Source of the DNA: Spirochaetaceae bacterium
Lineage (GTDB): Bacteria; Spirochaetota; Spirochaetia; DSM-27196; PWMO01
NCBI GenBank assembly: GCA_007693945.1
Contig: RECP01000069.1
Span: forward strand, 1,718 to 65,717
Direction of reading: 5' to 3'
Length of the DNA: 64,000 nt
Each line of letters begins with the position of its first letter. Positions within the stretch are counted from its first letter, which is position 1. Under the pieces are notes generated by a model, which worked only from the letters and a program-made list of their open reading frames with translations, was not told the DNA's origin and did not search any database. Positions 16,127 through 60,080 of this stretch are shown here, piece by piece. The position numbers and the translations under genes are program-made.

Positions 16127-16278
16127 GTCGGTTGGCAGACGAATTCCGCTGCGCCGCGCCCGAGAGCGAGCCCGCGAACGTCTCCGCAGCCTCTGCGAGG
16201 ACAAGTGAGCGGGGGTGCTCTCGAGGCAGGCGGGCAGGAGCTCCATGCCAACCGACCCCGTACGGCCAAAACTGCTGC
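16127..16278. repeat. Intergenic palindromic repeat element, copy 1 (core plus right end)
   Basis: Aligns at about three-quarters identity over ~145 nt to the reverse complement of 21786-21930. Bounded by GTCGGTTGGCA...TGCCAACCGAC. Confidence 0.8.
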
Positions 16279-16329
16279 GATGAGCACGATTCGCTCGACC
16301 GCAGCACCGAACGGGTGTATGCTCTAAGC

Positions 16330-16782
16330 ATGGAACTGAAGAGCAGTGCTGTACAGAAAGGCCAGGCGATGCCGCGCCGATATACCTGTGACGATGCCGA
16401 CATTTCGCCTCCGCTGGCCTGGAGCGGGGTTCCGCCGGGGACCAGGGCGCTGGCTCTGATCTGCGACGATCCCGACGCTCCGGTGGGAACATGGGTGCAC
16501 TGGGTCTACTACGACATACCGGCCTCGACCCTTGAACTGGTGCAAGGCGTTGCTCCGGATGAAAAACCGACGCCGGGGGGGTGTCAGGGACGCAACGACT
16601 TCGGTCGTCTGGGCTACGGAGGACCGTGTCCGCCGTCCGGCCAGCATCGCTACTATTTCAGGCTCTATGCGCTGGACTCGGAGCTTGGTCTCAATCCCGG
16701 CGCGTCAAGACAACAGGTCGAATCGGCCATGGCCGGTCACGTGTTGGATGAAGCCCAGCTGATGGTAACCTACGCACGCTAG
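16330..16782 (+). CDS. YbhB/YbcL family Raf kinase inhibitor-like (PEBP) protein
   Basis: SPPLAW, DDPDAP..TWVHW, NDFG..GYGGPCPP.G.HRY.F.LYALD motifs. Confidence 0.93.
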   Translation: MELKSSAVQKGQAMPRRYTCDDADISPPLAWSGVPPGTRALALICDDPDAPVGTWVHWVYYDIPASTLELVQGVAPDEKPTPGGCQGRNDFGRLGYGGPCPPSGQHRYYFRLYALDSELGLNPGASRQQVESAMAGHVLDEAQLMVTYAR

Positions 16783-16859
16783 CAGCTGTCGGCGCGCCGT
16801 CCACGGAATCTCTGTGCGTCGCGACCATCGTGCGATTGCTGAAGACGTGAGCGATGTGC

Positions 16860-18215
16860 ATGAACGTGCTGCTGCTCGGAATCAACGGCCGCTACAGCCA
16901 CACCAATCTCGCGTTGCGCTACCTGCGCAACGAAGTCAGGGCCGAAGGACACGCGGCGCGCATCGTCGAGTTCGATATCAGCACTCGTCGCCAGGACATC
17001 CTGGAAGCGATAACACTCGATGGCCCCGACGTGGTTCTGATCTCGGTCTATGTCTGGAACTCGCTGCTGGTTCGTACGCTGCTACCGGATATACGGGCCC
17101 TGCTGCCCGAATGCCGTCTCATTCTGGGAGGGCCCGAAGTGTCGTACAGTGCCGCGGAATGGCTCGCATCCCATCCGGAGATTGATTTGATCGTTGTGGG
17201 GCACGCCGAGGAAGCGCTGCGGCAAGTTGCATCCGCCGGATTTGGCTGTCAGACCGCGGTAATTGCGGTGCCCAACCGGCCGTTCCAGGATGTGCCTTTC
17301 CCCTACCTCGAAGAGGATTTTGCCGTTCTGGCGCACCGCTACGTCTATTATGAATCCAGCCGCGGCTGTCCCTGCAGCTGCAGCTACTGCGTCTCGGGCC
17401 GTGATGATCAGACTCTCGATTTCCGCTCCGTCGAAACTGCAATCGAGGAACTGCAGCGGATCATCGCGCAGGAGTCGCGCTGGCGGGAGCCTCCGATCAT
17501 CAAGCTTGTTGACCGCACGTTCAACGCCCGTCCGGACCGTGCGCGGGAGATCTGGCGCTATCTCATCGCTACCGACACGCGGGCAACGTTCCACTTCGAG
17601 ATTCATCCGGCGTTCCTGACCGAAGCCGATATGCGCGTGCTGGAAACAGCGCCGCCGGGCCGTTTTCAGTTTGAGATCGGTGTGCAGTCGGTGCACGGAC
17701 CCACGCTGGCGGCGATCGGCAGACCTCGGCGCTGGCAGCGGTTTGGTCCCGCAATCGAGCGGCTGATCAAGCTCGGCACGATCGCGGTCCATCTGGATCT
17801 GATCGTGGGCCTGCCACACGAGGACCTGCAGACCATGGCACGTTCAATTGATGCTATCATGGCGCTCAAGCCGACCCGGTTTGACCTCGGTTTCCTGAAG
17901 AGCCTTCCCGGCACTGCCATCCGGGCGCAGGCAGAGCTCAACGGCCAGATTGCGATGCACCATCCCCCGTACCAGGTAATGGCAAACCGCTGGTTGAGCG
18001 TGGCCGATTTTGCCCGTCTGCGGCGCATAGAGCAGTTTATCGACGGGGTCTGGAATGCCTGTCACCTGGAAACGGAAATCGACGCCTTGGCGCGGCGCTA
18101 CGGCGGCTACTTTGCCGCCCTGGACGCGCTGCAGCGCTACGCCGTGCGGAGTGGCTACAATCCGGCAACGCGACGCTGCCACAAGGTCAAAGCGTTTCTG
18201 GATGCCGCCCGCTGA
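16860..18215 (+). CDS. B12-binding domain radical SAM protein
   Basis: N-terminal B12-binding-like domain (SVYVWN, LGGPEVSY), CxxxCxxC motif RGCPCSCSYC, KLVDRTFN, FEIGVQS, HLDLIVGLP.E. Confidence 0.88.
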   Translation: MNVLLLGINGRYSHTNLALRYLRNEVRAEGHAARIVEFDISTRRQDILEAITLDGPDVVLISVYVWNSLLVRTLLPDIRALLPECRLILGGPEVSYSAAEWLASHPEIDLIVVGHAEEALRQVASAGFGCQTAVIAVPNRPFQDVPFPYLEEDFAVLAHRYVYYESSRGCPCSCSYCVSGRDDQTLDFRSVETAIEELQRIIAQESRWREPPIIKLVDRTFNARPDRAREIWRYLIATDTRATFHFEIHPAFLTEADMRVLETAPPGRFQFEIGVQSVHGPTLAAIGRPRRWQRFGPAIERLIKLGTIAVHLDLIVGLPHEDLQTMARSIDAIMALKPTRFDLGFLKSLPGTAIRAQAELNGQIAMHHPPYQVMANRWLSVADFARLRRIEQFIDGVWNACHLETEIDALARRYGGYFAALDALQRYAVRSGYNPATRRCHKVKAFLDAAR

Positions 18216-18234
18216 ATGCGCTACACTGGGGCGT

Positions 18235-18480
18235 GTGATCGAGCACGTCCATACGATTCACTATCCCGAGGGAGATACGCGCGACGTTGGGCGCGCGCTG
18301 CGCTACGGCGTGCTGGTAGACATCAACGGCGGAGAACTGGGGCTGCCGCTGGCCTCCGCCAGGATGATAGCGTACCGGGTCTGGAAGATATCCGGCGAGC
18401 AGACACGGAACCAGGAAATAACCCACTACTGGCTCGAGCAGGTGTACCCCGCCGAGTTGCGCGCGTACGCCGCCGAGTGA
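18235..18480 (+). CDS. Small hypothetical protein
   Basis: 81-aa GTG-started ORF with protein-like composition (HYPEGD, LVDING, YWLEQ). A -10-like TACACT lies 7 nt upstream. Confidence 0.6.
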   Translation: MIEHVHTIHYPEGDTRDVGRALRYGVLVDINGGELGLPLASARMIAYRVWKISGEQTRNQEITHYWLEQVYPAELRAYAAE

Positions 18481-18516
18481 GGCGCCGCCACGCGCAACCG
18501 GCGCTGCAAAGCGTTC

Positions 18517-19872
18517 TCAGATCGACGGCAAGCCCGCAAGCGCCATCGCGATCTCTTCCTCGGGGTAGTGATAGGCGATCAGCTTGTCGGCGTGGTAGTC
18601 CATATAGGCCTGAAGGTCGAAGTGACCATGGCCGCACAGGTTGAACAGGATCGACCGACTCTTGCCCTCCTCCCTGCAGCGTAACGCCTCGCGGATCGCC
18701 CCGGCTACCGCGTGATTGGCCTCCGGCGCCGGCAGGATTCCCTCACAACGCGCAAACTGAACACCGGCGGCGAATGTCTCAGTCTGATCAACCGACGTAG
18801 CCTCAATCAGCTTCTGGTCCAGCAGGTGACTTACCAGCGGCGCCATGCCGTGGTAGCGAAGTCCTCCGGCATGGAACCCGGGTGGCACGAAGGTGCTGCC
18901 GAGGGTGTACATCTTTACCAGGGGCGTAAGGTGAGCGGTGTCTCCGAAGTCATAGGTAAACCTGCCCTTGGTCAGGCTGGGACAGGCTGAGGGTTCGATC
19001 GCCACGACTCGTACGTCCTGTTCCCCGCGCAGCTTCTTTCCGATGAACGGAAACGCAATACCGGCAAAATTGGATCCCCCGCCGGTGCAGCCGACCAGAA
19101 TGTCGGGGTAGTCATCGGCCAGTTCCATCTGCTCAATGGCTTCGATTCCAATGACGGTCTGGTGCAGTAGAACGTGGTTCAGTACGCTACCCAGGGCGTA
19201 CTTGGTACCCGGGTGCGTCACCGCGGCCTCAACGGCTTCCGAAATCGCGATTCCCAGCGAGCCGGTGGAATCCGGGTGTTCGGCGAGTATCGCGCGACCG
19301 GCAGCGGTCTCTTCGCTGGGGCTGGCGGTCACCGTGGCCCCGTAATTCTCTATCAAGCCACGCCGGTACGGTTTCTGATTGTAGCTCACGCGCACCATGT
19401 ATACCTTGCAGTGCATGCCGAAAAAGGCGCACGCCATCGCAAGCGCACTGCCCCACTGGCCTGCCCCGGTCTCGGTCGCGAGCTGCGTCACACCTTCCTG
19501 CTTGTTGTAGTACGCCTGAGGCACGGACGTGTTCGGTTTGTGACTTCCGACCGGGCTGACGCCCTCATACTTGTAGTATATGCGCGCCGGAGTATCGAGG
19601 GCCTTCTCCAGCCGCCGGGCTCGGTACATCGGCGTTGGGCGCCACTGGCGCAGGATGTCACGCACCTCTTCGGGGATCTCGATCCGCTGTTCGGTACTGA
19701 CTTCCTGCATGATGAGAGCCATTGGGAACAATGGCGCGAGGTCATCCGGGCCTACCGGCTGGTGAGTTGCCGGGTGCAGAACCGGTGCAAGCGGCTGTTT
19801 GAGGTCGCTTTGAATGTTGTACCAGTGGGTCGGGATTCGCTCTTCGGGGAGATTGAACTTTATGGGATCCAT
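18517..19872 (-). CDS. trpB2: TrpB2 / TrpB-like PLP-dependent enzyme
   Basis: [45 protein letters not shown] and LCGHGHFD motifs. No trpA adjacent. Confidence 0.93.
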
Positions 19873-19950
19873 GGCAACTCCTGTTGTGCAGATTGAGTGC
19901 CGAATTGTAGCACCAGTACCAACCGAGGGTCAACGTCCGATTCGCTGCCG

Positions 19951-20050
19951 GCAGCAATTGTGGTTTTGGCCGTACGGGGGCGGTTGGCATGGAGCTCCTG
20001 GGGGTAAGGACAACGTTGGCGCGTGCGGCGCCGTACGGCCAGAATTGCTG
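19951..20050. repeat. Intergenic palindromic repeat element, copy 2 (internally deleted)
   Basis: 19963-20000 is the reverse complement of 16235-16272 with one mismatch in 38 nt. The ends GCAGCAATT..TGGCCGTACGG and CCGTACGGCCAGAATTGCTGC are inverted. Confidence 0.8.
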
Positions 20051-20059
20051 CGCTGCCGG

Positions 20060-20908
20060 TCAGTCGTAACGGCGTTGCATCGCCTCGCGCGCCTTCTGGA
20101 GGTTGAAATCCATGAAGTTGCGGTACCGGTCTTTGCACCAGAACGCCACGTGCATGCAGTTCATGACTTCACACCAGCGCAGGGCGTGCCGGTCATAGGT
20201 CGAACGTGCGCCGTAGCCGTCAAGAAAGAACTCTCGCGCCTGAACGCTGTTCATGTAGTTGCGCCGTTCGCGCAGGATCCATGCAAGCTCGTATTCGCGC
20301 CATCCGATCCCGGCAGACTCCCAGTCCAGAATCGCGGATACTTCACCGCGGTTGACCAGCACATTGGCGTCGTTGAGATCCCCGTGCACAAACACCTGAT
20401 CGCGGTTATGAGGGGCGTTCTGTCGCAGCCAGTGAACCAGCTCCTGGAAGCGCGGATCGTCGAGTTCCTGTTCACCGAGCAATCCGTACAGTGATGTGCG
20501 TTTCTGCGGCTGCCAGTCGAGCTTGATGGTATGCAGCCAACCGACTAACTCACCGAGTTGATGCAGCACACGGTTGGTCATGTGCGGCAGATGATTGTCG
20601 CTGAGCGGATTGAGAACATCGCGCAGAATTGTGCCGGGTCGCTCCTCCAGCGCCATGAAACTGCGGCGGCCGACCCCGTGCCACAGGACGCGCGGCACGG
20701 GAAAGCTCTGCTGTCCCAGTACGACCAGTGCGTCACGCTCATTGTCCATGGTTGCGGTGGTGCTCTTGCACACTTTCAGATAGAGCCCGAGGGTCGAATT
20801 GCGGCATCGCGCCGTACAGCGATAAACTGAGTTCACCTCCGCGATACGGTTGCGTGTCGCCGAGAGGATCTCGACGTCCTGTGGTATTGCGTAGTCCGGA
20901 ACGCGCAT
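20060..20908 (-). CDS. Aminoglycoside phosphotransferase / choline kinase (APH) family protein
   Basis: YLK, VPRVL, Brenner motif HGDLNDANV and ILDWE. Confidence 0.82.
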   Translation of the reverse strand: MRVPDYAIPQDVEILSATRNRIAEVNSVYRCTARCRNSTLGLYLKVCKSTTATMDNERDALVVLGQQSFPVPRVLWHGVGRRSFMALEERPGTILRDVLNPLSDNHLPHMTNRVLHQLGELVGWLHTIKLDWQPQKRTSLYGLLGEQELDDPRFQELVHWLRQNAPHNRDQVFVHGDLNDANVLVNRGEVSAILDWESAGIGWREYELAWILRERRNYMNSVQAREFFLDGYGARSTYDRHALRWCEVMNCMHVAFWCKDRYRNFMDFNLQKAREAMQRRYD

Positions 20909-20926
20909 GCTTTCTGACTGTGCCTG

Positions 20927-21688
20927 CTAACCAAAGTCGGGGACGTCGAGGTACTCCAGAATCTCATCGCAGGCGTCAAAGAGCAGCTGAAGCGCGTCAC
21001 GGACGGCAACGCCGCGCAGTTCGGTCTCGCGATCGAGTTCGCTGTAGGTCAACTCGGACTCGCCGTTCTGGCACAGAATGCCGTCCCCGTCAAGATCGTC
21101 GATCAGCTCACCGGCAAAGCGGTGCACGCGCCCGAAGAAGGTATTGGAGTCGATGACCACGGCGTGCCGCATCTCCACCATGCGCTTGAGCATGTCCTGC
21201 TCATAGGTCTTGGAGTAATTGCCCTCCTGGATCCGCAGTGCTTCGTCACAGTAGTTGGCGACACGGCGTGACAACTGACTGAACTGGTGGTAGAACCCGT
21301 CGCGTTCAACCGAGTACTTCACGTCGAGTTTCAGCTTGCGTTCACTGAACAGACCGATGAACTCTTCTTCAAAATAGCGCAGGTATAGCAGTAGCGCCTG
21401 AACATCGCGCACCTGGGTCGAATGAGTTCTGAGCACGTCAGGATAGCGTTTCTCCAGGGAGGCCAGAATCGCGAAGCGTTCATCGTCGGTAGTGGCGTGC
21501 ATTTCGGCACCACTCTCGAGAAACAGGTTGTCGATCTTCAGCCGCTCCTGCTCGAGTTGCGTGAGTTCGTCGACAATGGTGCGTTGCGACAGAGAGTCGC
21601 CGGCGGCACGCAGTCTGCCCTGTAGCTGGCGAATGCGCTTCAGAACAGCGTGATAGCTCGCTTGAAGGTTTTCCGTATAGTCCTGCAT
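20927..21688 (-). CDS. Hypothetical helical protein
   Basis: 253-aa ORF with strong coding composition and an N-terminal coiled coil. Confidence 0.7.
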   Translation of the reverse strand: MQDYTENLQASYHAVLKRIRQLQGRLRAAGDSLSQRTIVDELTQLEQERLKIDNLFLESGAEMHATTDDERFAILASLEKRYPDVLRTHSTQVRDVQALLLYLRYFEEEFIGLFSERKLKLDVKYSVERDGFYHQFSQLSRRVANYCDEALRIQEGNYSKTYEQDMLKRMVEMRHAVVIDSNTFFGRVHRFAGELIDDLDGDGILCQNGESELTYSELDRETELRGVAVRDALQLLFDACDEILEYLDVPDFG

Positions 21689-21778
21689 TGGTCCCCGGTT
21701 GTTGCGTAAACGGTACAACCACTCTCAAGTATAGAGCAAAAACGGCGTAATGCAACCGTTGAACACGCGACTCACAAA

Positions 21779-22026
21779 TCCGCATTCTGACCGCACGGAG
21801 CCGGTTGGCATACATATGACTGCGCGCCTGCCGTGAGAGTGCCCCTCTTCGCTTGTCCTGGCAAAGCCTGCGGAGACGCTCCGGGGGGCACTCTCCGGCG
21901 CGGCGCACCGTACCTGGTCTGCCAACCGGCTCCGTGCAGACAAACGCGACGCCTGACTTCGCTGCTGCAGACAGACAGTCCAAGGCGCCCGTGGCGATAA
22001 ACGGTCCAAATGCGAACCGCTGTCCG
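21779..22026. repeat. Intergenic palindromic repeat element, copy 3 (most complete; MITE-like or structured RNA)
   Basis: Nested inverted repeats: CGCATTCTGACCG/CGGTCCAAATGCG at the ends, GCACGGAGCCGGTTGGCA/TGCCAACCGGCTCCGTGC, and GAGAGTGCCCC/GGGGCACTCTC. Confidence 0.85.
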
Positions 22027-22059
22027 CGACTCTCACAGACGTGATGCGGGGTGATGGTT

Positions 22060-22407
22060 TCAGAAGATCGGCTTCAGACCCGCCCGGTAGAGTTCGCCGG
22101 CCGCCCGGAAGACTGAATAGGCAGTGCTGAGAAGCACTATTTCGTTCTGCTCTGCGAGTGACCGCATCTCGGCGGTGACCTTCTTGTTACGCCCGAACAG
22201 AACCACGTGGATATCGGACATCATTGCCGTTCGTACCGTCTGGGCGTTGGACAGGCCGGTGATCAGCAATACCTGGTCGGCGGTCACCGTGAGGACATCG
22301 CTCATCAGGTCCGATGCGAACCCGTAGCTCACGGCGTGGTTGTGGCTTATGTCGGTGCTGGTCACAATTGACCCGTTAACTATCTTGACTATTTCCTCGA
22401 CCGTCAT
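22060..22407 (-). CDS. Small DRTGG-domain protein
   Basis: GFASDLMSDVL, LLITGL.N.Q.VRTA.M.D and F.AAG.LY..GL motifs. Confidence 0.85.
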   Translation of the reverse strand: MTVEEIVKIVNGSIVTSTDISHNHAVSYGFASDLMSDVLTVTADQVLLITGLSNAQTVRTAMMSDIHVVLFGRNKKVTAEMRSLAEQNEIVLLSTAYSVFRAAGELYRAGLKPIF

Positions 22408-22577
22408 CTTTGCTATACCACCTGAAGAGAGAGAACTGTGGAACTCAGTGTATACTGATCGCGCGCCGGGCGTACAGTAGTCTGAGTGCGGTCGTCACGA
22501 TCACGGCATAGCCGGCGTGAACCCGTCGTCCGCCGAAGAACACAAACAGCGGATTTCTTCTGCTAAAGGTTGTATAT

Positions 22578-22625
22578 TGCCGCCATATGGTGTATAGAAT
22601 GAGTGTACAACATTATATATGGGGG
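22578..22625. promoter_or_regulatory. Tandem NrdR-box-like operators
   Basis: ACATTATATATGGGG (22610) and a weaker TGCCGCCATATGGTG (22578) lie 32 bp apart, immediately 5' of nrdJ. Both resemble the consensus acaCwAtATaTwGtg. Confidence 0.6.
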
Positions 22626-22632
22626 TGTTTGC

Positions 22633-25600
22633 GTGAAGATCGCACGTCGGTTTACAGATAACAGCTCAGGACCGTACAAGGGCATAACCTGGGATACGCG
22701 GGTCTCCGAAATCAGGAACCCTGACGGCTCGGTCATATTTCGCAAGGAAGACGTGGTGGTGCCGTCGAGTTGGTCACAGATTGCAACCGATATCCTGGCA
22801 CAGAAGTACTTTCGCAAATCCGGAGTTCCCTCGAGCAACGGACACGGCGACCAGGAATACGACGCGCGACAGGTATTCCACCGATTGGCCCACACCTGGA
22901 CTATCTGGGGTGAACGCGCCGGCTATTTTGACACCGGAGAAGACGCTCGGGCCTTCTACGAAGAAATGTGCTATATGCTGGCGCACCAGATGGGAGCGCC
23001 CAACTCTCCCCAGTGGTTCAACACCGGTCTGCACGCCGCCTACGGCATCGAAGGGCCGGCGCAGGGACACTTCTACGTTGAACCGCAAAGCGGAGAGGTC
23101 AAACCGTCGCAGAGTGCCTACGAACGGCCTCAGCCGCACGCCTGTTTCATAATGGACGTCAAGGACGACCTGGTCAATGAAGGCGGCATCATGGATCTGG
23201 TAACACGTGAGGCGCGGCTGTTCAAGTACGGTTCCGGCACCGGCTCCAATTTTTCGCGCCTTCGCGGCGAGACCGAACCGCTGTCCGGTGGGGGAGTTTC
23301 CTCGGGACTGCTTTCGTTCCTTAAGATAGCGGATCGCTCGGCGGCGGCAATCAAAAGCGGCGGTACCACGCGTCGGGCCGCCAAGATGGTGACCCTTGAT
23401 GCAGATCACCCTGATATCGAACGCTACGTGGAGTGGAAAGCTGCCGAGGAGTACAAGGTCGCCAGTATGGTTGCCGGAAGTCGCATTATCGCACGGCGAG
23501 TGCGCGCGATGCTCGAAGCCATCAAACAGTACGGCGCGGACCTGCAGGCGGCCTGCGATCCCGATCGTAATCCGCAGTTACGTCAGGCGGTGATGCAGGC
23601 AATGGACTGCGAGATTCCAACCTCGCTCATTCACCAGGTTCTGCAGCGTGCCCAGGAAGGTGATCTCGAGCCGTTGCTGATGGAGTTCACTACCGAATGG
23701 GACGCCGAGGCGTACAACACGGTCAGTGGGCAGTCGTCCAACAATTCGGTGCGCGTCGCCAATCAGTTCATGCAGGCGGTTATCGAAGACACGGACTGGA
23801 ACCTCGTTGCGCGGACCGACGGGTCGGTGCGCAAGACGATCAAGGCGCGTGAGCTTTGGCATAGCATGGCGCGCACATCGTGGCAGTGTGCTGACCCGGG
23901 CCTGCAGTTTCACAGCACAATCAACGAATGGCACACCTGCCCTGAAGACGGCGAGATCCGCGCTTCCAACCCGTGCAGCGAGTACATGTTTCTCGATGAT
24001 ACGGCGTGTAACCTGGCGTCGCTCAACCTGCTGACCTTCTATGACACCGACAAGGACATCTTCGATATCGAGTCCTACCTGCACGCAATTCGTCTCTGGA
24101 CGATCGTGCTCGAGATCAGTGTGGTCATGGCGCAGTTCCCGAGTCGAGAGGTAGCGCGCAAGAGCTACGATTACCGTACCCTCGGCCTGGGATACGCCAA
24201 CCTGGGCACCTTGCTGATGGTGATGGGGCTGCCGTACGACGGTGACGAGGGACGTGCGACGGCGGCTGCGCTTTCCGCCATTCTGACCGGGGAAGCGTAC
24301 GCCACTTCGGCGCAGATGGCCGCCGACGCGGGGCCGTTTGCGCGTTATGAGGCCAACAAGCAGCACATGCAGCGCGTGATCCGCAATCACCGGCGCGCGG
24401 CTTACAACGCTCCGCAGGAAGAGTATGAAGAGCTGACTATCCTCCCGCGTGGTATTGATGAGAAGCTCTGTCCCGCCGATCTGGTAGAGACCGCTCGCCG
24501 TTCGTGGGACCGTGCGCTGGAATTGGGTCTGCAATACGGCTATCGCAACGCGCAGGCCACTGCGATTGCCCCAACCGGCACAATCGGTCTGGTCATGGAT
24601 TGCGATACCACCGGCGTTGAGCCCGACTTCGCGCTGGTCAAGTTCAAGAAGCTGGCCGGGGGAGGCTATTTCAAAATCATCAACCGATCGATTCCGCCGG
24701 CACTCAGGAAACTGGGTTACTCCAAGAAGCAGGTGCGCGAGATCATCGAATACTGTCTCGGCCACGCTGCGCTCGATGATGCACCGGGCGTGAGCCGCGA
24801 GAAACTGGCCGCCAGGGGTTTCAGTCAGAAGACTCTCGACGAAGTCGATGCTTCGCTCAAGAACGCCTTTAACCTGGCCGGCGTCATCAATCACTACGTA
24901 CTCGGACAGCACGTTATGGAACAGGAGCTCGGTGTGCCCGAGGCAACCTATAGCCTGCCCGGATTTGACCTGCTGAAACACCTTGGCTTCACGCAGCAGG
25001 AGATCGACGCGGCGGAGATCCACGCCTGCGGAGCGATGACCGTTGAGGGCTGTCCGCATCTCAAGCCGGAACACCTGCCTGTCTTTGATACCGCCAGTCC
25101 TTCGGGGCGGCTGGGAACCCGTTCGATCAGCTGGCGGGGACACGTAGAGATGATGGCCGCCGTGCAGCCGTTTGTTTCGGGCGCTATCTCCAAGACAATC
25201 AACATGCCCAACGCGGTCACAATTAGCGAGGTCGAGGAGGCTCACATGCTCTCGTGGCGCCTGATGCTCAAGTCGATCGCACTCTACCGTGACGGCTCCA
25301 AACTGAGTCAGCCGTTGAGCAGTCTGGGAGCCGGCGCCGACAGAATTGCCGAGAAACTGCTGACGCTCAAGTCCGGGATACCCGCGGCAACCGATCTGTC
25401 TGCCGGCGACTCACCGCGAGTGCAGACCCGGGCACAGCGACGCGCGTTGCCCGGGCGTCGCGTCGGCTACACGCAGAAGGCCAAGATCGGCAATCACAGC
25501 CTGTTTATCCGGACCGGACAGTACGTGGACGGCAGTTTGGGCGAAATCTTTCTTGATATGCACAAGGAAGGCGCAGCATTCCGATCGCTGGTCAACAGTT

Positions 25601-50772: not shown

Positions 50773-50775
50773 ACA

Positions 50776-53564: not shown

Positions 53565-54097
53565 GTGTTGCATGCCGCCAATCTGGTACGCACCTACTCG
53601 ATTGTTGCCATTGACCGTCGGCGTGAAGAGATGGGTTGTACGGTTCAGCCGCGCTTCTTTGCGGTTGGCGTGCTCCGCCTCCGGGCGGAGCCGAGGATTG
53701 GCGTAGTGGCAACCCAGGCAATGGTTGTAGTATCCACCGGCACGGGCGGTGATTTCCACACTCGCCATCACGTCAATCTGCGTGTCGAGGATCAACCCCA
53801 GCCGCTGCTGGAGCTAAGCGCCTGCGGCGCTTGCGGGAAGCCTGCGACCACGTCAATCGCGGAGATGCGGCCATGGAACAGGCAGCCATAGAATGTGCGC
53901 TGCAAAAGTATTCCTCCGCGCGGCAGCTGGTACCCGAAATCCTGGAGTTACGGTACCGGCACGCAGTGGCTCCGGCCGACGGCGGGCGAGTACATGACGG
54001 CTGCAGGCTGTTCAGCGAGGTCTTCAAAGCCGAGCCTAGCTGGCCAGAGTTGACCCGGCGTCAATGCTCGTCCGCGCCGCTGTGGGCGTGGCCGTGA
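53565..54097 (+). pseudogene. DUF1028 (Ntn-hydrolase-like)/TPR gene remnant
   Basis: TYSIVA.D....EMG..VQ..FFAVG......E..IG.VATQA and LRVEDQPQPL.EL in one frame; a TPR-like tail (GD.AME...AL..YS.A..L.P...EL.Y.HAV) in another; the central part is missing. Confidence 0.65.
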
Positions 54098-54543
54098 TCG
54101 ACTTCTTCCGCGGTTGCTTCACGGACATCGGCTACTGCTACATCAAAGTGCAACGTTTGCCCAGCCAGCGGGTGATTGGCATCCAGCGTGACGTCATCGT
54201 CGCCGATGCCCTTGATAGTCAGCACCTGCACCGCGCCGTCGGCTGTCTGTGCCTGAACCTGTGATCCGACCTCGATGATCGACGGGTCCTGAAAGCGGTC
54301 CTTGCCGACTGCAAAAACGAGGTCTTCGTTGTACTCACCGTAGCCTTCATCAGGCTCAACGGTTACCGAAAGCGCGTCCCCGGCAGTCCTGCCGTGCAAT
54401 GCCTTCTCCAGACCGGGGATGATCGATCCGCTACCGTAGAGAAATGAGAGCGGCTCACGATTCTCCGAACTGTCAAGAACTGTTCCGCTGTCGTCCTTGA
54501 GCGTATAGTCGATGCTCACAACTGTCTTTTCGCGAACGTTCAC
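54061..54543 (-). CDS. slyD: FKBP-type peptidyl-prolyl isomerase SlyD
   Basis: VVSIDYTL, G...IIPGLE.AL, LDANHPLAG.TL.F.V and REAT.EE..HGH motifs; AAGGAG RBS. Confidence 0.95.
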   Translation of the reverse strand: MNVREKTVVSIDYTLKDDSGTVLDSSENREPLSFLYGSGSIIPGLEKALHGRTAGDALSVTVEPDEGYGEYNEDLVFAVGKDRFQDPSIIEVGSQVQAQTADGAVQVLTIKGIGDDDVTLDANHPLAGQTLHFDVAVADVREATAEEVDHGHAHSGADEH

Positions 54544-54660
54544 AGTATTCTCCTTAAAAACGTGACGGGCGAGAGCCGTTATGATGGCGGATAAGGCTCA
54601 TTTCCTCTTAGGGTAACGCCGTTGGCACAAGAAGGCAAGGCAACACGGGCAATCAGGAGC

Positions 54661-54808
54661 GGGACAGCCTCGATTCGCATTCTGACCGTGTAGCGGCTCG
54701 GGCGCCCTGGGTTGTTTGTCTGCAGCAGTGAAGTCAGGCGCCGCTTCTGTCTGTACGGAGGTACGGAGTCGGTTGGTATAAATATGACTGTGCGCCTGCC
54801 GTCAGAGT
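54661..54808. repeat. Intergenic palindromic repeat element, copy 4 (long left arm plus start of core)
   Basis: Matches the reverse complement of 21920-22026 over ~100 nt (e.g. TGTCTGCAGCAG.GAAGTCAGGCG), then continues like 21811-21840. Contains a tandem GTACGGAG duplication. Confidence 0.8.
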
Positions 54809-54868
54809 CTATTGACAATCCGACAAACAAAACCGACTATTGTACCCGCCATTATGACGGAGGAACGT

Positions 54869-55657
54869 ATGCCGCGCACAAGATCGCCAGTAGCTTTGCT
54901 GGTCCCGCTGATTGCGGTGGTTATGCTGATCACTACGGCCTGCGATGGTCTCTTGAGTCCGTCCGCTAACGACGCCGGGCGTCAGAACAACGACGGAACC
55001 CGCATCCTGTACGACAGTAGCCTGGGAACTCTTCCCGGTGATCAACAGTTCCGCTACCTGCGTTACCCTCTGTTCGGTGCCCAGGCAACCGAGACCTACA
55101 ACACCAATGTGACCGTTCTCGACACCTCGCCTGATATCACGGAACTGGCCGGCTACTTTGCCGGCTCGCCGGCGGCCCCTACGCTCCCCACGCTTGTGCG
55201 CAGCCGCGGCTATACTGTAACGTTTGCGCTGCAGGTTGACGAAGAAGATCACGGCAATCGGAGCGACCGGGCCGGCTTCAGCATTATCATACTGAGCGAT
55301 GATCTTCTCGGAATCTCACTGGGGTTCTGGGAAGACAGCATATGGGCACATGAGGGTGGTGAGTCGTCCGATCTCTTCGCGCGCGCCGAAGAGCTGGACC
55401 GGGACACTACCGCAGAGCTTGTCACCTACCGACTCACGATCCTCGGCAGCCGGTATGCGCTGTTCGCCGACGGACAGCAAATCCTGACCGGTACCGTGCG
55501 TGACTACACCGCCTTCGAAGGCTTCAGCGGTTTCAACCCCTACCGTACGCCCAATTTCATCTTTCTGGGTGATAACTCGCAGTCTGCGGCTGCCCGGGTG
55601 CGTCTGGGCGACATTACCTTAAGCGTACCAGCCGCCGATCCCGTCCCTGACCCGTAG
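54869..55657 (+). CDS. Lipoprotein with a beta-sandwich domain (resembles choice-of-anchor Y domain proteins)
   Basis: Lipobox TTAC and GGAGG RBS; DRAGFS, LGFW...IWA, G..RDYT.F and PY.TPNFIFLGDN motifs recalled from that family. Confidence 0.65.
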   Translation: MPRTRSPVALLVPLIAVVMLITTACDGLLSPSANDAGRQNNDGTRILYDSSLGTLPGDQQFRYLRYPLFGAQATETYNTNVTVLDTSPDITELAGYFAGSPAAPTLPTLVRSRGYTVTFALQVDEEDHGNRSDRAGFSIIILSDDLLGISLGFWEDSIWAHEGGESSDLFARAEELDRDTTAELVTYRLTILGSRYALFADGQQILTGTVRDYTAFEGFSGFNPYRTPNFIFLGDNSQSAAARVRLGDITLSVPAADPVPDP

Positions 55658-55691
55658 CGTGCATCACAGCGCGTGAGGCAGCGTCTCATCT

Positions 55692-55765
55692 TACGCCCAG
55701 CAGGACTCGAACCTGCCACCTACAGCTTAGAAGGCTGTTGCTCTATCCGGATGAGCTATGGGCGC
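55692..55765 (-). tRNA. tRNA-Arg(TCT)
   Basis: GCGCCCA/TGGGCGT acceptor stem, ACAGC-CT TCT AA-GCTGT anticodon arm and GGTTCGAGTCC T-arm. CCA is not encoded. Confidence 0.95.
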
Positions 55766-55847
55766 ATGGAGTCCTGCAGCAGGCGCTGCAGGATCGGCGC
55801 TGCGCGGACGCACGCGCCTGTTTCGGCCCTCCTTTGGGGGTCCGAAA

Positions 55848-55920
55848 TCGGGATGAGAGGATTCGAACCTCCGGTCTCCTGCTCCCAAAGCAGGCGCCTT
55901 AGCCACTAGGCTACATCCCG
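55848..55920 (-). tRNA. tRNA-Pro(TGG)
   Basis: CGGGATG/CATCCCG acceptor stem, CCTGC-TT TGG GA-GCAGG anticodon arm and GGTTCGAATCC T-arm. CCA is not encoded. Confidence 0.95.
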
Positions 55921-55965
55921 CAACCTGAACTTCCGCCGAGCCCACCAGGACGCGACGGCAACCGA

Positions 55966-55994
55966 ATTATAGCGACGGCCCTGCCCGCGGTCAA
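55966..55994 (-). promoter_or_regulatory. Sigma70 promoter of the tRNA-Pro/tRNA-Arg pair
   Basis: Minus strand TTGACC-17 nt-TATAAT, 45 nt upstream of tRNA-Pro. Confidence 0.75.
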
Positions 55995-56608
55995 CCGGGC
56001 ACAATGGTGACCGTCAGCTGCAGCAGTCGGCTGCCTCCGTCGCCGTCCAGGAAACGATAACGAAACAGCTCACCGTGACTCACGCCGGGTGGAATGACGG
56101 CAACTACAACCGTTCTGAACGGAGACGGGTTCCAGAAGAGACCAAAGCTCGGCGGCATCAAGTCCTCGTGGGTCAGCTCGATCGGCAGGCGCACTCCGGC
56201 GGCTGCTTCCTCGTGGGTCAGCTGCAGATCCATCTGTACCCGGGGTGTCGACCGCAGGTTGTCTTGCCACCACTGGTCAGCGCCCGCAATACCGCCAAAC
56301 AGATCAAACAGGTGCCAGAGCCCCCAACCACGTCCGGACGCAAATCGGTCGAGGTCTTCGTGCGGAACCCAATGCGAGAAATCCGATGCACCCTCGCGCT
56401 GACGCAGCTGCCGGTCGTGCACACGTCTCCGGCTGCTGTCGCGCAGAGTGTGGTACGCATCGTTCAGATCCGCAAATCGGTTGCCGTCTCCTTCGCGTGT
56501 ATCAGGATGTTGCAACTTGGCCTGCCGCCGATACGCACGCTTGATATCGTCACTATCCGCATCGCGAGGTACACCGAGGGTTCGGTAGTGATCCCGGTCT
56601 TCACTCAT
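55991..56608 (-). CDS. J-domain (DnaJ-like) protein
   Basis: DHY.TLGV...A...DIKRAYR..AK..HPD and F..LN.AY..L.D...R motifs, with a short DnaJ-C-like tail (IPPGV). Confidence 0.85.
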   Translation of the reverse strand: MSEDRDHYRTLGVPRDADSDDIKRAYRRQAKLQHPDTREGDGNRFADLNDAYHTLRDSSRRRVHDRQLRQREGASDFSHWVPHEDLDRFASGRGWGLWHLFDLFGGIAGADQWWQDNLRSTPRVQMDLQLTHEEAAAGVRLPIELTHEDLMPPSFGLFWNPSPFRTVVVAVIPPGVSHGELFRYRFLDGDGGSRLLQLTVTIVPG

Positions 56609-56760
56609 AGCTTGCCTCTTGGTGTCTGTCTATAAGAAAACAATGAAAGTCACGTTGGTCAAGAGGCGACACGGACACTCTATTGTTCGGCGTCGCCGGC
56701 GATCTTTGGCCGCTTCGACGTTGACAACGGTTCGTTTTGGCCGGTAGGCTGAAGCTGCGA

Positions 56761-57834
56761 ATGTCTACACAGCAACCGGTTCTTTCAGCGCTTGATTCTC
56801 ATCTCACCGAGGTCTTCGGTCGCCAGGGACTATCGCTGCTCGGGGTTGCCGCCGCCGACACGGGATCCGAGGCTATCCGCGCGTCAACGGAATACGACGC
56901 GTGGATCGCCGCCGGATACGCAGGAGAGATGCGTTATCTGCAACGTCACGCACCCATCAAGTACCGCCCCTGGATGTTAGTGCCGGACTGTCGCTCGGTT
57001 CTGATGGTCGGGTTGAACTATTACCGCCGCAGCTCGGCAGCCGCGCACCAACCACGGGTGGCGCGTTACGCCTGGGGACGCGATTACCACCGCCTGCTCG
57101 GCAAGCGCCTGCAGCGAGTGGCACGCTCCCTGGCGCAACGCTTCCCTGCTGACCGTTTTCGGGCCTTTACGGATGCCGTGCCCCTGGCTGAACGCTATTT
57201 TGGCCGGCAATCCGGTATCGGCTTCACCGGCCGCAACACGTTGCTGATCAGCGCAGAGTACGGCAGCTGGCTTGTACTGGGCGGAATAGCGACGACGCGC
57301 GTCTTCAGCCCGACTGCGCCGCCTTGTGGCAGTCGCGGCGCCTGTCCGCCGCGCTGTCGCAAGTGCATTGAAGTTTGCCCTACCGGAGCTCTGCTCGGGC
57401 CGTACCGGATCGATGCTTCACGCTGCATCTCGTATCTGACAATTGAATTGCGAGGCTCGATCCCGCCCCAACTGCGTCCGGCCCTCGGCTCGTGGCTGTT
57501 CGGCTGTGATCTGTGTCAGGAGGTCTGCCCGCTCAACGCACGGGCCCGGGTGACCGCTGAGCAGGACTTTCTGCGCGATCGAGCCGGCGAATCACCGCCG
57601 TTACGCGACATTCTTGGCATCACTACGGACGAGCAGTTCCGCGCCCGCTTTGCCGGGTCGCCGCTGGCTCGGGCCGGCCGACAGGGCTTGCTGCGCAACG
57701 CCTGCGTTGTGGCCGGCAACACTGGTCGTCACGACCTGGCGGAACTGTTGCAAGAGCGCAGCCGGGATAGCGACGCGGTAATCGCCGAACACGCGAGCTG
57801 GACGCTTGCAGTGCTCGGTTACGATACAACCTGA
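56761..57834 (+). CDS. queG: Epoxyqueuosine reductase
   Basis: W...GY.GEM.YL, ARYAWGRDYH, G.GF.GRN.LLI, C..C.KC...CPTGA, RCISYLTIE and FGCD.CQEVCP motifs. Confidence 0.93.
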   Translation: MSTQQPVLSALDSHLTEVFGRQGLSLLGVAAADTGSEAIRASTEYDAWIAAGYAGEMRYLQRHAPIKYRPWMLVPDCRSVLMVGLNYYRRSSAAAHQPRVARYAWGRDYHRLLGKRLQRVARSLAQRFPADRFRAFTDAVPLAERYFGRQSGIGFTGRNTLLISAEYGSWLVLGGIATTRVFSPTAPPCGSRGACPPRCRKCIEVCPTGALLGPYRIDASRCISYLTIELRGSIPPQLRPALGSWLFGCDLCQEVCPLNARARVTAEQDFLRDRAGESPPLRDILGITTDEQFRARFAGSPLARAGRQGLLRNACVVAGNTGRHDLAELLQERSRDSDAVIAEHASWTLAVLGYDTT

Positions 57835-57883
57835 CCGGCGGCCGTGCGCGGCCGCGGGCAACGGGCTTTCGGCCTTCAGCCCG

Positions 57884-58621
57884 TCACGGATCGGGTTCGG
57901 AGAGAATCGGGTGCATCACGCCGTCGAAACGCAGATTGCGGCGGAAGAGGTGTACATCACTGACCGCTTTCAGCCGAGAAAGGTACTCGCGAACCATCAT
58001 TCTCATTGCCGCGACGCCCTCGACGTCACGCGCACGATAGGCCACCGCTTCGATATGGTGGTTGTCGGCAATGTAGAGCGCCCGTTCAGCGTGGAATGCT
58101 TGAGAGATGATAGTGTACCGTGACTGATCGAAAACCAGGCGGGCTCGGACCACTGAATCGAAGGTGTTGAATCCCGCGTTGTCCAGCACGATCGACTCCA
58201 TCGGGATTCCCCGACCGACAAGCGCATCGCGCATCGCCACCGGCTCGTTATACGAAGCATGCCGGTTGTCGCCGCTGGCCAGGATATAGCGCACTTTGCC
58301 GGCCTCATAGAGCTCCACGGCGGCCTCAATGCGGTGGGCAAAGAACGGGTTTATCCCGCCGCCGGGCTGATACTTGGCGGTTCCCAGCAGCAACCCTACG
58401 TCGTTATATGGAACCTCGTTGACGCTGTCATAGACAAACTCGCGTCCGTGTTGCTGTACAACGGTGTTGGCGTAGAACAGCAGTACCACTAACAGCAGCA
58501 GCCCGTAGTGAGCGCAATATCCGGCTATGCGAAGTACACGTGAGCGCCTCTCCGATGATCCGGGGCCGGTATTTTGCGAGACAGGTATGTTAGGTTCGAC
58601 CTCGCAGTTTTGAGATGACAT
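57884..58621 (-). CDS. sanA: SanA/YdcF (ElyC) family protein
   Basis: GLLLGT, R...A.ELY.AGKV, SGDN....YNEP..M, D.AGF.T.DS..RA, ISQ.FH.ERALY and RE.L.R motifs. Start uncertain. Confidence 0.85.
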   Translation of the reverse strand: MSSQNCEVEPNIPVSQNTGPGSSERRSRVLRIAGYCAHYGLLLLVVLLFYANTVVQQHGREFVYDSVNEVPYNDVGLLLGTAKYQPGGGINPFFAHRIEAAVELYEAGKVRYILASGDNRHASYNEPVAMRDALVGRGIPMESIVLDNAGFNTFDSVVRARLVFDQSRYTIISQAFHAERALYIADNHHIEAVAYRARDVEGVAAMRMMVREYLSRLKAVSDVHLFRRNLRFDGVMHPILSEPDP

Positions 58622-59306
58622 CAATCGCCTTAAGCCGCACCTCGCGCATATAATTTCCCGAGGTAACCCCCAGCAGCGCATCGATTACGGCAGGATCGGA
58701 GATACCGCCAGTGGCGACAGCAAGCTTCTCTATCGCAAGCAACGACGCAAACGCGAGGTTGTTATCCGGTGCCAGCTGGATATTCTGGCGGCCGAGCACG
58801 CGAGCAACCTGAGTGGTGACTTCGTTCTCATCGTTCATGCCGATAAGCCCCAGCGCATAGACTGCTTCCGAGAGAACCATCGGTTCCGGGTCATCCCGCA
58901 GGATTCCGAGCAGGACACGCTTTGACTGCTCACCCCCGATCTCACCAAGCAGACCGGCAGCCTCACGGCGAATATCGGGATAATCGTTCTCGATGCGACT
59001 ACCGCCGCTGATGACCCGGCGCCCGGTGCCTTCGGTTGCCAGCGACTCAAGTACGATGAACAACGACGGGTTATCCTCAGTCAACGCACCGGACTGTATC
59101 ATGGAACGGATACTCTGCAGAGCGAGTAATTTCATCTCGCGGTCTTCCGAACGTGCCTGACTGCGAATGATCTGCAGCTCAACGTCCTGACTGAGATAGA
59201 GCTCTTCGATGGTATACTGACGGCGATCTTCAGCTGCGTCCTGCTGAGCAAAAACCAGACCACCGAACACTGCAACCAGCGCTATAATCACAACAAACCG
59301 CTTCAT
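58590..59306 (-). CDS. Exported HEAT-repeat protein
   Basis: Signal peptide; IRREAA.LLG..G and EPMVLSEAVYALG repeats; GAGGAG RBS. Confidence 0.8.
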   Translation of the reverse strand: MKRFVVIIALVAVFGGLVFAQQDAAEDRRQYTIEELYLSQDVELQIIRSQARSEDREMKLLALQSIRSMIQSGALTEDNPSLFIVLESLATEGTGRRVISGGSRIENDYPDIRREAAGLLGEIGGEQSKRVLLGILRDDPEPMVLSEAVYALGLIGMNDENEVTTQVARVLGRQNIQLAPDNNLAFASLLAIEKLAVATGGISDPAVIDALLGVTSGNYMREVRLKAIDVISKLRGRT

Positions 59307-59348
59307 CGGGCGCTCCTCGGAAGATAACAATCCAGTTCAGAGTATAGT

Positions 59349-59966
59349 CTAGAATACATCAACTTTCCAACTTCCGGCCACGTTTCGCAGAAGGTAGAGA
59401 ATCGCGGGTTGGCCCCGTACAACCATAATGGCCTCAACCTGGTCATCCCGCAGGAACCGTAGATCGTCAAGCCGGGCATTTGCCCGGCTCGGTCCGACAA
59501 CCCACTCGAAGTAGTCGCGCAGGCTCTCGAGCTCGATTTCGTTGCGTTGCAGAATCGGCATTTGCGAGATCTCGCGCAAGATCTGCGGATCCGAATAGGT
59601 GCGCCGGTACTCGGGCGTCAGATAGTCCAGCCAGCGCTGGTAATCACGCCGCGCGATGATGCCGTTGAGCTCTTCGATTGTCTGCTCGACTTCACTGAAG
59701 GTGCGCTCGAATACCTCTTCAGTCACCTCAAACGCTTCTTCAACCGCAGGTTCGGCTGCGGGCGGAACGGGCTCAGGATCCTGCGCAACCGGCGGTTCCG
59801 GATCGACCCTCTCCGGCTCCGCCGGCGCTTCCGGCTCTGCCGGAGGAGACGGCGGAGCCGGATGCACCGCTGCCGGTTCGTCGCCGGGCACGACACTGGC
59901 GCATCCGCCCAGCAACAACGCGAGGAGAAGCATCAACGTGAGGGTTGCCGTCAGCACCTTTGGCAT
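59349..59966 (-). CDS. Hypothetical lipoprotein with a Pro/Glu-rich linker
   Basis: Lipobox LGGC, a low-complexity linker and a globular C-terminal domain. Confidence 0.78.
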   Translation of the reverse strand: MPKVLTATLTLMLLLALLLGGCASVVPGDEPAAVHPAPPSPPAEPEAPAEPERVDPEPPVAQDPEPVPPAAEPAVEEAFEVTEEVFERTFSEVEQTIEELNGIIARRDYQRWLDYLTPEYRRTYSDPQILREISQMPILQRNEIELESLRDYFEWVVGPSRANARLDDLRFLRDDQVEAIMVVRGQPAILYLLRNVAGSWKVDVF

Positions 59967-60026
59967 TCTACCTATATAGTACCTTCGGCGCCGCAGGCTG
60001 TCAAATCGCGGGTTCTTTGCCTGCAA

Positions 60027-60080
60027 TTCGCATTCTGACCGCAGGGAGTCGGTTGGCATCGGATGACTGTGCGGCCGCCG
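60027..60080. repeat. Intergenic palindromic repeat element, copy 5 (left-end fragment)
   Basis: TTCGCATTCTGACCGCAGGGAGTCGGTTGGCAT..ATGACTGTGCG closely matches 21779-21833. Confidence 0.8.

Follow-up and report, generated by a model that had tools for sequence, protein, structure and literature searches.

Intergenic repeats in a soda-lake spirochaete, known from a high-GC, 3.73-Mb draft genome (G000), are non-autonomous DNA transposons of MITE type. We consider it likely, for the explanation as a whole, that these elements home to promoters: a DDE-type transposase acting in trans inserts them via a 9-bp staggered cut, not at random but in front of a sigma-70-type promoter that was already there, in one orientation and with a defined end (the A end) 17-18 bp upstream of the -35 hexamer. 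The gene and its core promoter are left intact, and the element displaces all DNA upstream of about -53. It is by the exact, oriented spacing of 17-18 bp to the -35 box that we identify this mechanism.

Five related stretches had been reported in a window of 64,000 nucleotides (the whole stretch of DNA analysed), and the first-pass annotation supposed that they were abundant genome-wide. All five are present and related. Using them as BLAST queries against the whole of G000 returned 383 HSPs at E<=1e-3, and at least 127 distinct family loci were identified, spread over 66 of the 140 contigs; the alternative raised at the outset, that only these few copies exist, does not hold. The elements also break the assembly, with 30 of the 127 loci touching a contig end. 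A pattern built on the element end occurs 100 times in G000, once each in G002 and G003 and never in the 18 other genomes of the same family, and its reversed control has 0 occurrences in G000, which places the family size far above chance. In G002 and G004, subfamily 2 is represented at different loci by copies of 85-90% identity.

Each of 27 paired copies is bounded on either side by terminal inverted repeats of 26 bp, CAGCAATTC..CCGTACGG, with the consensus 5'-CAGCAATTC(T/G)CATT(T/C)TG(G/A)CCG(T/C)ACGG. The MITE starts with 5'-C (CAGC..), and its ends read 5'-CAG..CTG-3'. The two ends are alike over these 26 bp and diverge beyond: the A end continues into an imperfect palindrome of about 150 nt bounded by GGTCGGTTGGCA/TGCCAACCGACC, and the B end bears a distinct 65-nt module. 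Elements are non-coding and range from 58 to 250 bp, many of them being internal-deletion or one-ended derivatives. At least two subfamilies exist, about 75% alike. The three-quarters identity first estimated between copy 1 and the reverse complement of copy 3 is borne out (75.0% over 152 nt by BLAST), and the stems cited for these copies are exact, both the outer ones (GTCGGTTGGCA/TGCCAACCGAC in copy 1, GCCGGTTGGCA/TGCCAACCGGC in copy 3) and the inner ones (GAGAGC/GCTCTC and GAGAGT/ACTCTC).

The window holds the following copies; promoters here and throughout are sequence predictions, not mapped. Copy 1 (16105..16277, + strand; nhmmer match to model positions 68-239, examined in sequence and alignment) belongs to subfamily 1 and is without the B-side terminus. 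Its A end (..CCGTACGGCCAAAACTGCTG) lies at the right, and 17 nt outside it is a promoter-like pair, TCGACC-17-TATGCT (16295..16323, + strand, score 8/12), just before the ATG at 16330 of a PEBP-family gene (Pfam PF01161 on 16330-16779). Copy 2 (19952..20050, - strand) is a complete 99-bp internal-deletion variant of subfamily 1 with its A end at the left, 18 nt from a predicted promoter, TTGACC-18-TACAAT (19904..19933, - strand, 10/12, with a TG before the -10), from which a PLP-enzyme gene (18517-19872, Pfam) is read. This promoter was also called by an independent scan of 15900-22300, which recovers one of the three promoters there. Copy 3 (21773..22022, - strand) is a full-length, 250-bp member of subfamily 2, again with the A end at the left, flanked by CACGCGACT and TCCGCGACT (7/9 identical) and lying 17 nt from the promoter-like pair TTGCAT-16-TATACT (21728..21755, - strand). 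Copy 4 (about 54665..54808, + strand) departs from the 17-18-nt promoter spacing; by eye against copy 3, it is a rearranged, truncated subfamily 2 fragment made of a B-type end, the spacer module and the start of the A-arm interior. Copy 5 (60021 to about 60078, - strand) is a solo A-type end fragment of subfamily 2, found 16 nt from a predicted promoter, TTGACA-17-TACTAT (59976..60004, - strand, 10/12), whose downstream gene has its ATG at 59966. In agreement with the first-pass annotation, five of five copies are intergenic and beside gene starts (crude gene model, Pfam), and three of them (copies 1, 4 and 5) are in divergent promoter regions, with copies 2 and 3 between tandem genes. The window had also been described as free of transposase genes; this stands for the five models of the genome-wide search (PF01609, PF00872, NF033572, NF033529 and PF01797), none of which matches on the window's contig.

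Insertion by transposition is recorded at the element borders. Direct repeats of 9 bp, at least 8/9 identical, abut the termini in 14 of 20 paired copies, and nine of these 14 are identical at 9/9. Copy 2 lies between two perfect copies of CGCTGCCGG (19943..19951 on the left, 20051..20059 on the right, 9/9), and a copy in the sister species G002 is flanked by GAATCGATA, likewise a 9/9 duplication. A search for empty sites, proposed with the initial description, found them. Contigs of run X4, from a related population, join 19943 directly to 20052; the 108 bp absent there are the 99 bp of copy 2 and one copy of the 9-bp duplication. Copy 3 is missing from the same run (joint 21772->22038) and from between the same genes in the sister species G004 and G002. 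By eye, the empty G004 allele carries a promoter-like pair, TTGCAA-16-TATACT, at the site corresponding to that of copy 3. The repeats are thus small, non-coding and multi-copy, with terminal inverted repeats, a constant 9-bp target duplication and presence/absence polymorphism, and the proposal of a MITE-like mobile element is sustained.

The other half of the initial proposal was a structured RNA maintained for its fold. Read in this way, the elements would be primarily structured RNAs or hairpin terminators of REP/BIME-like kind, put between genes by selection, with mobility secondary. The core of about 150 nt does form one long hairpin, which has -92.9 kcal/mol (z -4.6) on the strand running towards the promoter and, on the opposite strand, -89.7 kcal/mol (z -2.7). 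Over the 47 pairs of the core alignment, 96.6% of the cells are paired. Cells with changes on both sides number 21, a count reached by 0 of 500 shuffles, and the G-U pairs fall on the strand which would be transcribed from a tandem gene lying upstream. The compensatory base changes noted at first are real, with changes on both sides in 7 of 47 pairs, but this is only modestly above shuffles (4.4 +/- 1.4; 36 of 500 reach 7), and nearly all of them come from the one split between the two subfamilies, about one event each. Such changes are equally expected for a palindrome kept at the DNA level. Checked against Rfam as had been suggested, the repeats have no match: at gathering score the whole window yields only two tRNAs, and at E<=1 there are 0 matches over 16000-22200. 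By eye no T-run follows the hairpin. Moreover, the element lies upstream of the abutting promoter and is therefore not in that promoter's transcript. Together with the target duplications, empty sites and terminal repeats, which show transposition, these points make a primarily RNA-level role unlikely in our view.

A REP-like identity fares no better. REPs are 20-40 bp long, have no terminal inverted repeats or target duplications, and are tied to a Y1 transposase. The spirochaete elements resemble REP/BIME sequences as abundant intergenic palindromes with strong hairpins; unlike them, they have 9-bp duplications, and no Y1/RAYT gene was found in G000 (PF01797, 0 matches). REP/BIME identity was rejected on these two grounds.

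The homing of the MITE is most evident in the position of its A ends. A sigma-70-type -35/-10 pattern at an offset of 16-19 from the terminus was found at 44 of 73 A ends (39 of them at 17-18). Only one of the 38 B ends has it, and ten of the 24 ends left unclassified; among 5000 control points chosen in front of predicted gene starts it occurs at 61 (1.2%; binomial P ~1e-64). In the offset profile from 0 to 79, every offset outside the peak has at most two hits. When the best site scoring at least 7/12 is taken, 62 of 73 A ends have one, with peaks at offset 17 (26 ends) and 18 (20 ends), and a recognisable promoter is absent at the other 11; under a stricter 9/12 criterion only 34 of 73 score. 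Of 57 A ends that could be classified, 50 point at the 5' end of a gene, the median distance being 62 nt. A -35-like hexamer is also present at offset 17 in four of five A-type ends of the G002 and G004 loci. The placement 5' of genes had been seen from the window alone; the exact, oriented spacing of 17-18 bp to the -35 had been missed.

Two readings would account for this placement by other means. Insertion might be random among intergenic regions, the promoter association being left by purifying selection for copies that spare promoters. Intergenic spacers are short (coding fraction of G000 about 0.88 by the crude gene model), and many bacterial MITEs are described near gene starts (review PMC10969869). 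Selection of this kind, however, would permit any distance above about 10 nt and either orientation, whereas the peak is 2 nt wide and strongly oriented (44/73 against 1/38), and the same offset recurs in G002 and G004, whose insertions are independent; we regard this reading as very improbable. Still less credible is a non-mobile cis-regulatory module, such as a regulon operator or enhancer, duplicated along with its genes. The constant place relative to promoters and internal palindromes such as CCGTACGG would suit such a module, but the genes beside the copies are housekeeping genes with no relation to one another (Pfam), orthologous loci of relatives are without the element, and the duplicated 9 bp plus the 8 nt up to the -35 have no consensus (information <0.3 bit per position), the -35/-10 pair being all that the sites have in common.

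Precedents for oriented homing to promoters exist among autonomous bacterial elements. According to PMC3942029 (Guerillot et al. 2014; Brochet et al. 2009 is cited there), the TnGBS/ISLre2 elements and the ISKra4 group choose sites upstream of sigmaA promoters, at 15-17 bp from the -35, and are oriented where their two inverted repeats differ; the inverted repeats measure 18-39 bp and the direct repeats 8-9 bp. They are prokaryotic Mutator-like DDE transposons (TnGBS ICEs and ISLre2 as p-MULT 3, the ISKra4 group as p-MULT 4), with a conserved terminal cytosine of the inverted repeat and, in the transposase, a signature motif that separates domains N1 and N2. The MITE shares with these elements direct and inverted repeats in those size ranges, a fixed and oriented promoter distance and the sparing of genes; its spacing of 17-18 nt (terminus to TTGACA) exceeds the published 15-17 by 1-2 nt. 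They differ in that the published elements are autonomous, 1.1-52 kb long and equipped with their own transposase, and the MITE is 58-250 bp, non-coding and built on a long internal palindrome. A term search of the host lists in PMC3942029 did not return the spirochaete phylum, and a literature search by term, reviews included, found no paper on MITEs of the TnGBS/ISLre2/ISKra4 families. As far as these sources go, oriented promoter homing is known from a few bacterial transposons and was not found reported for mini-elements.

Among mini-elements, the Correia elements (CREE/NEMIS) of Neisseria duplicate TA and bear their own outward promoters. Unlike these, the MITE described here has a 9-bp duplication, an external, pre-existing promoter and an exact position relative to the -35. 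The two are otherwise alike: Correia elements (reviewed in PMC10969869) are short and non-coding, have 26-bp terminal repeats, lie close to gene starts in hundreds of copies, include variants with internal deletions and influence adjacent promoters.

Yeast Ty3 and Dictyostelium TRE5-A, which integrate at a fixed distance from the transcription initiation complex, offer a functional analogy only; both are retrotransposons of eukaryotes and are directed at Pol III genes. The comparison with Ty3 is made in PMC3942029 as well.

Which enzyme mobilises the MITE is a separate matter. A transposase gene bounded by the same ends, which the first-pass annotation had proposed to look for, was not found: no autonomous element with MITE ends was detected in G000 (an 86% complete draft), and none turned up among 98 genomes of the order or in four collections covering genomes, metagenomes, viruses and plasmids. 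By analogy with the published elements, we give about an even chance to a promoter-targeting, prokaryotic Mutator-like transposase of the TnGBS/ISLre2 or ISKra4 group. Enzymes of these groups are proposed to sense the promoter via the initiation complex of RNA polymerase; the orientation of the MITE would be fixed by its unequal ends. Circumstantially, among the 21 genomes of its family, G000 alone matches an ISKra4 or ISLre2 transposase model, and G000 alone has the MITE burst. The match belongs to a resident ISKra4-family IS at C5:98167 that runs into a second contig (to C58:48), with ends GGGYGCACGACAATTT and a transposase scoring 268.7 bits with NF033572 (cut-off 205). Like the MITE, this IS makes a 9-bp duplication (CTCCGCAAC), and a C(G/A)(A/G)CAATT box is common to the ends of both; unlike the MITE, it has seven extra end bases (GGGYGCA), and the likeness of the ends is not significant (empirical p 0.07-0.8). 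Its two ORFs stand in a -1 relation and so recall the ISMich2 group, for which PMC3942029 finds no location at promoters. By eye, a constant promoter spacing was not seen in six further flanks of its clade from other genomes (seven with that of G000), and its close relatives (81-88% amino-acid identity) in G046 and G047, of one family, and G075, of another, occur in genomes of the order without a MITE burst. Judging from these sequence comparisons, the resident IS, whose ends are unrelated, is probably not the mobiliser.

The MITE may instead be moved by a transposase that is not Mutator-like, for example of IS4, IS5/IS903 or ISAs1 type, with homing evolved independently. Enzymes of IS4, IS903 and ISAs1 type also make 9-bp duplications, and the 5'-CAG..CTG-3' ends are unlike those of the one ISKra4-family (Mutator-like) IS in G000. 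The genome has three DDE_Tnp_1 genes, all at contig ends, so that their IS ends are incompletely seen. Yet no T1-like sequence was found near these three genes, and the published signature of the p-MULT 3 and ISKra4 groups is this very combination of a 9-bp duplication with a set distance and orientation (PMC3942029). We hold this origin to be possible but rather doubtful.

A harmless landing site might help to account for the growth of the family past 100 copies in a single lineage, and the palindrome could perhaps be retained for transposition or as a read-through barrier. A bolder reading is possible but in our view less likely than not: this would be the first described MITE to keep exact, oriented sigma-70 promoter homing, it would be driven by an uncatalogued lineage of promoter-targeting transposases whose ends, 5'-CAGCAATTC, differ from those of the resident ISKra4-family IS, and about 3% of promoters would have been rewired or insulated within the lifetime of one species. 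If this is true, about a hundred promoters have had all DNA upstream of about -53 swapped for a hairpin of about -90 kcal/mol, and the family is a natural map of the organism's promoters.

So far, promoter-directed integration is on record for a small number of autonomous elements of bacteria. Here it would survive in derivatives that are non-coding and 99-250 bp long, which implies that the ends alone hold what the transposase needs, including the orientation cue. More than 70 independent, precisely placed insertions provide base-resolution data on how the target is read, and since A ends mark predicted promoters, they may aid annotation in an uncultured organism. Each insertion would replace the upstream activator/UP-element zone, a plausible route to large-scale regulatory change for which natural filled and empty alleles exist.

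All five stretches that the first-pass annotation had grouped together are present in the window and mutually related, and the three-quarters identity that it had given for copy 1 (16105-16277) and the reverse complement of copy 3 (21773-22022) was measured as 75.0% over 152 nt. A BLAST search of the five stretches against the genome holding the window (G000; a 140-contig draft of 3.73 Mb with 61% G+C, 86% complete) returned 383 HSPs at E<=1e-3. In this genome, a core of at least 130 nt occurs at sixteen loci; apart from copy 1 and copy 3 themselves, these 14 cores share 92-99% identity with copy 1. A profile search with the full element gave 129 matches, which after merging with the BLAST hits amount to 127 distinct loci on 66 of the 140 contigs. 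Since 30 of the 127 loci touch a contig end, members of the family help break the assembly; the true number of loci probably exceeds 127. Summed contig depth in sequencing run X1 reached 1083 over the bin of copy 2 versus about 16 in its flanks, a value that is not a copy number and is compatible with a high one.

Extending the alignment outward revealed that the 151-nt palindrome lies inside a longer unit of some 245 bp. This unit runs from a 26-bp terminus (CAGCAATTCTCATTTTGGCCGTACGG) through a 65-nt module and the palindrome (GGTCGGTTGGCA...TGCCAACCGACC) to the same 26-bp terminus inverted, so that the element ends read CAGCAATTC..GAATTGCTG. The A end (beside the palindrome, toward the promoter) and the B end (the opposite terminus) are alike over 26 bp and different beyond. 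A second subfamily, to which copy 3 belongs, has the terminus AAT(T/C)CGCATTCTGACCGCACGG. Internal-deletion forms are numerous and other copies are one-ended fragments; copy 2 (19952-20050, 99 bp) retains model positions 5-57 and 198-246, and copy 5 (60021-60078) is a solo end. Copy 4 (54665-54808) is a rearranged fragment whose B-side module is joined to the A-arm interior, an arrangement that looks like the product of an inversion of the core between the inverted GGTTGGCA boxes and a later truncation; TTGACA comes immediately after it. TGGCA in GGTTGGCA was considered as a sigma-54 -24 box and dropped by eye, the -12 GC being missing. On a lower-G+C metagenome contig (L045:528-640), the same 26-nt terminus (CAGCAATTCTCATTTTGACCGTACGG) is joined to a different, unrelated hairpin, and this element may be a relative of the MITE family in another organism.

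The proposal of a MITE-type mobile element is borne out by terminal repeats, 9-bp duplications, empty sites and abundance. Direct repeats of 9 bp, matching at 8/9 or better, lie exactly at the termini in 14 of the 20 two-ended copies (nine of them perfect); among the six failing copies, three match at 7-8/9 after a boundary shift of 1-3 nt and the other three do not match. Copy 2 has CGCTGCCGG on either side. Empty sites were found in relatives for both copy 2 and copy 3. Contigs from run X4, a related population from a different study that is about 90-95% identical, join window position 19943 to 20052, skipping 108 bp, which corresponds to the 99-bp element and one of its two flanking repeats; across copy 3, the join is from 21772 to 22038. 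Copy 3 is likewise absent between the same genes in the sister species G004 and G002, and the corresponding place in G004 carries a promoter-like pair, TTGCAA-16-TATACT (by eye). Both sister species have subfamily-2 copies at other loci (85-90% identity), one with a perfect 9-bp duplication. Among the species genomes, G001, G003 and G005 show no clean empty site for copy 2 but an additional gene of about 650 bp in its place. This gene, between the genes that flank copy 2 (window 19934-20059 against the matching stretches L025 and L026), is absent from G000 and from the run X4 population.

The feature of interest is the fixed, oriented landing site. Outward from the A end come the 9-bp duplication, about eight unconserved bases, a TTGACA-like hexamer, a spacer of 16-18 nt and a TAnnnT hexamer. 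With the offset counted from the terminus to the -35 hexamer, the promoter pattern stands at offset 16-19 in 44 of 73 A ends (39 at 17-18), 1 of 38 B ends, 10 of 24 unclassified ends and 61 of 5000 control points placed 45-110 nt upstream of predicted gene starts. The enrichment at A ends has a binomial P of ~1e-64, and over the offset profile 0-79 every other offset has at most two hits. When the best site was scored for each of the 73 A ends, 62 reached 7/12 and 34 reached 9/12, with best-site offsets peaking at 17 (26 ends) and 18 (20 ends); at 11 of the 73 there is no recognisable promoter. Of the A ends that could be classified, 50 of 57 point toward the 5' end of a predicted gene, at a median distance of 62 nt; for B ends the division is 18 to 14. 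These figures depend on a crude gene model, which placed 16 A ends 'inside' over-long ORFs.

Within the window, copies 1, 2, 3 and 5 keep the spacing rule. A stricter independent scan recovered the promoter of copy 2 (TTGACC-18-TACAAT, 10/12) and not those of copy 1 and copy 3, both of which score 8/12. At the G002 and G004 loci, a -35-like hexamer stands at offset 17 from four of the five A-type ends. The genes that flank the window copies are ordinary: an MscS-type channel, a PEBP, a radical-SAM enzyme, a PLP enzyme, an APH-type kinase, DRTGG and FKBP. Only 6 nt separate the -10-like TATGCT (window 16318-16332) from the start of the PEBP-family gene, whose mRNA may be leaderless. On contig C137 of the same genome, an A end lies upstream of a promoter that precedes the apparent 5' end of a tRNA gene (by eye).

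Landing of this kind has been described by Guerillot et al. (2014; PMC3942029) for three sets of prokaryotic Mutator-like DDE transposons, the TnGBS conjugative elements, the ISLre2 family and the ISKra4 group. Their insertions lie upstream of the -35 box of sigmaA promoters, at a distance of 15-17 bp, and take a fixed orientation if the two inverted repeats differ; direct repeats measure 8-9 bp and inverted repeats 18-39 bp. By analogy with Ty3, that paper suggests that the elements make contact with the RNA polymerase initiation complex. Our MITE family shows each behavioural feature listed there, but its spacing to the -35 is 1-2 nt longer than the published one. Membership of the group also depends on the cognate transposase, which the searches did not recover.

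The genome does hold one ISKra4-family gene (NF033572, 268.7 bits, C5:98623-99954), the only match to this family among 21 genomes of the bacterial family. It belongs to a complete IS outside the window, reaching from C5:98167-99990 into C58:1-48, with ends GGGYGCACGACAATTT, a 9-bp duplication CTCCGCAAC and two ORFs in a -1 frameshift relation. As mobiliser of the MITEs this resident element was rejected as unsupported: its ends are not significantly like MITE ends (p 0.07-0.8), the -1 relation of ORFs is the mark of the ISMich2 group, which is not found at promoters according to PMC3942029, and no constant promoter spacing was visible by eye in six further flanks of this IS clade from other genomes (seven with that in G000). 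Transposases 81-88% identical to its own occur in G046, G047 and G075, from two other families of the order, which suggests that this IS has spread horizontally. An IS256-family IS on contig C79 (about 2300-3600, outside the window; PF00872, 419.5 bits) was rejected as parent, having its own, unrelated inverted repeats; an apparent 9-bp duplication, CTGAAGTAG, was read by eye from its flanks.

Broader searches for a parent were negative. None of the 24 ends of neither A nor B type leads into an ORF, and blastn-short alignment of the MITE end to the DNA around four transposase genes gave 8-10-mers only. Exact end patterns occurred in six stretches of the genome contig collection, three of them in Spirochaetaceae MAG-titled records with MITE copies, in two metagenome contigs (one chance-like, the other with the same 26-nt end on a different hairpin) and in no viral contig. 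Copy 3 had no blastn match among plasmids. With up to 3 mismatches, the end pattern was little above its reversed control in 98 genomes of the order, with no pair at IS distance. No Y1/RAYT gene was found in G000. The mobilising transposase may belong to another family, may have been lost or may be missing from the assembly.

The palindrome itself was assessed on 19 cores, namely 14 of subfamily 1 (including copy 1 and that on contig C21), copy 3 and four from G002/G004. Their consensus hairpin comprises 47 pairs, and 96.6% of the cells are paired. As first noticed, the stems co-vary, with seven pairs changed on both sides, the two stems originally named among them. The 21 double-change cells exceeded those in every one of 500 shuffles; the count of seven covarying pairs (4.4 +/- 1.4 in shuffles) was reached in 36 of the 500. 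Slid controls gave 1-3 pairs. Nearly all double changes fall between the two subfamilies, equivalent to roughly one event for each pair. The palindrome is conserved over about 25% divergence, and folding is strong on either strand, at -92.9 kcal/mol (z -4.6) and -89.7 kcal/mol (z -2.7). It may offer symmetric sites for protein binding, form a DNA hairpin or fold-back to aid transposition, or act as an RNA hairpin. Family members had no match in Rfam, whose only matches in the window are two tRNA genes on the minus strand (55692-55765 and 55848-55920).

The end pattern occurs 100 times in G000, once each in G002 and G003 and in none of 18 other genomes of the family (reversed control 0); this marks a recent burst within a single lineage, subject to the loss of repeats from draft genomes. 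The runs holding the window are labelled 'soda lake metagenome', and record titles of three related matches agree with a soda-lake origin. Positions 115-317 of L001, a 2,997-bp contig whose record is titled Balneolales MAG, hold a subfamily-2 element sharing 92.7% identity with copy 3 over 123 nt; this points to a mis-binned contig or a transfer. Spirochaetes are MITE-rich according to a 2024 census (PMC11602168). Term searches of that census and of a 2024 MITE review (PMC10969869) returned no ISKra4 or ISLre2 and no fixed-distance targeting, and none of the papers retrieved by a literature search joins MITEs with either family. The family is thus a non-autonomous, spirochaetal form of promoter-homing transposition, a behaviour that is itself already in print.
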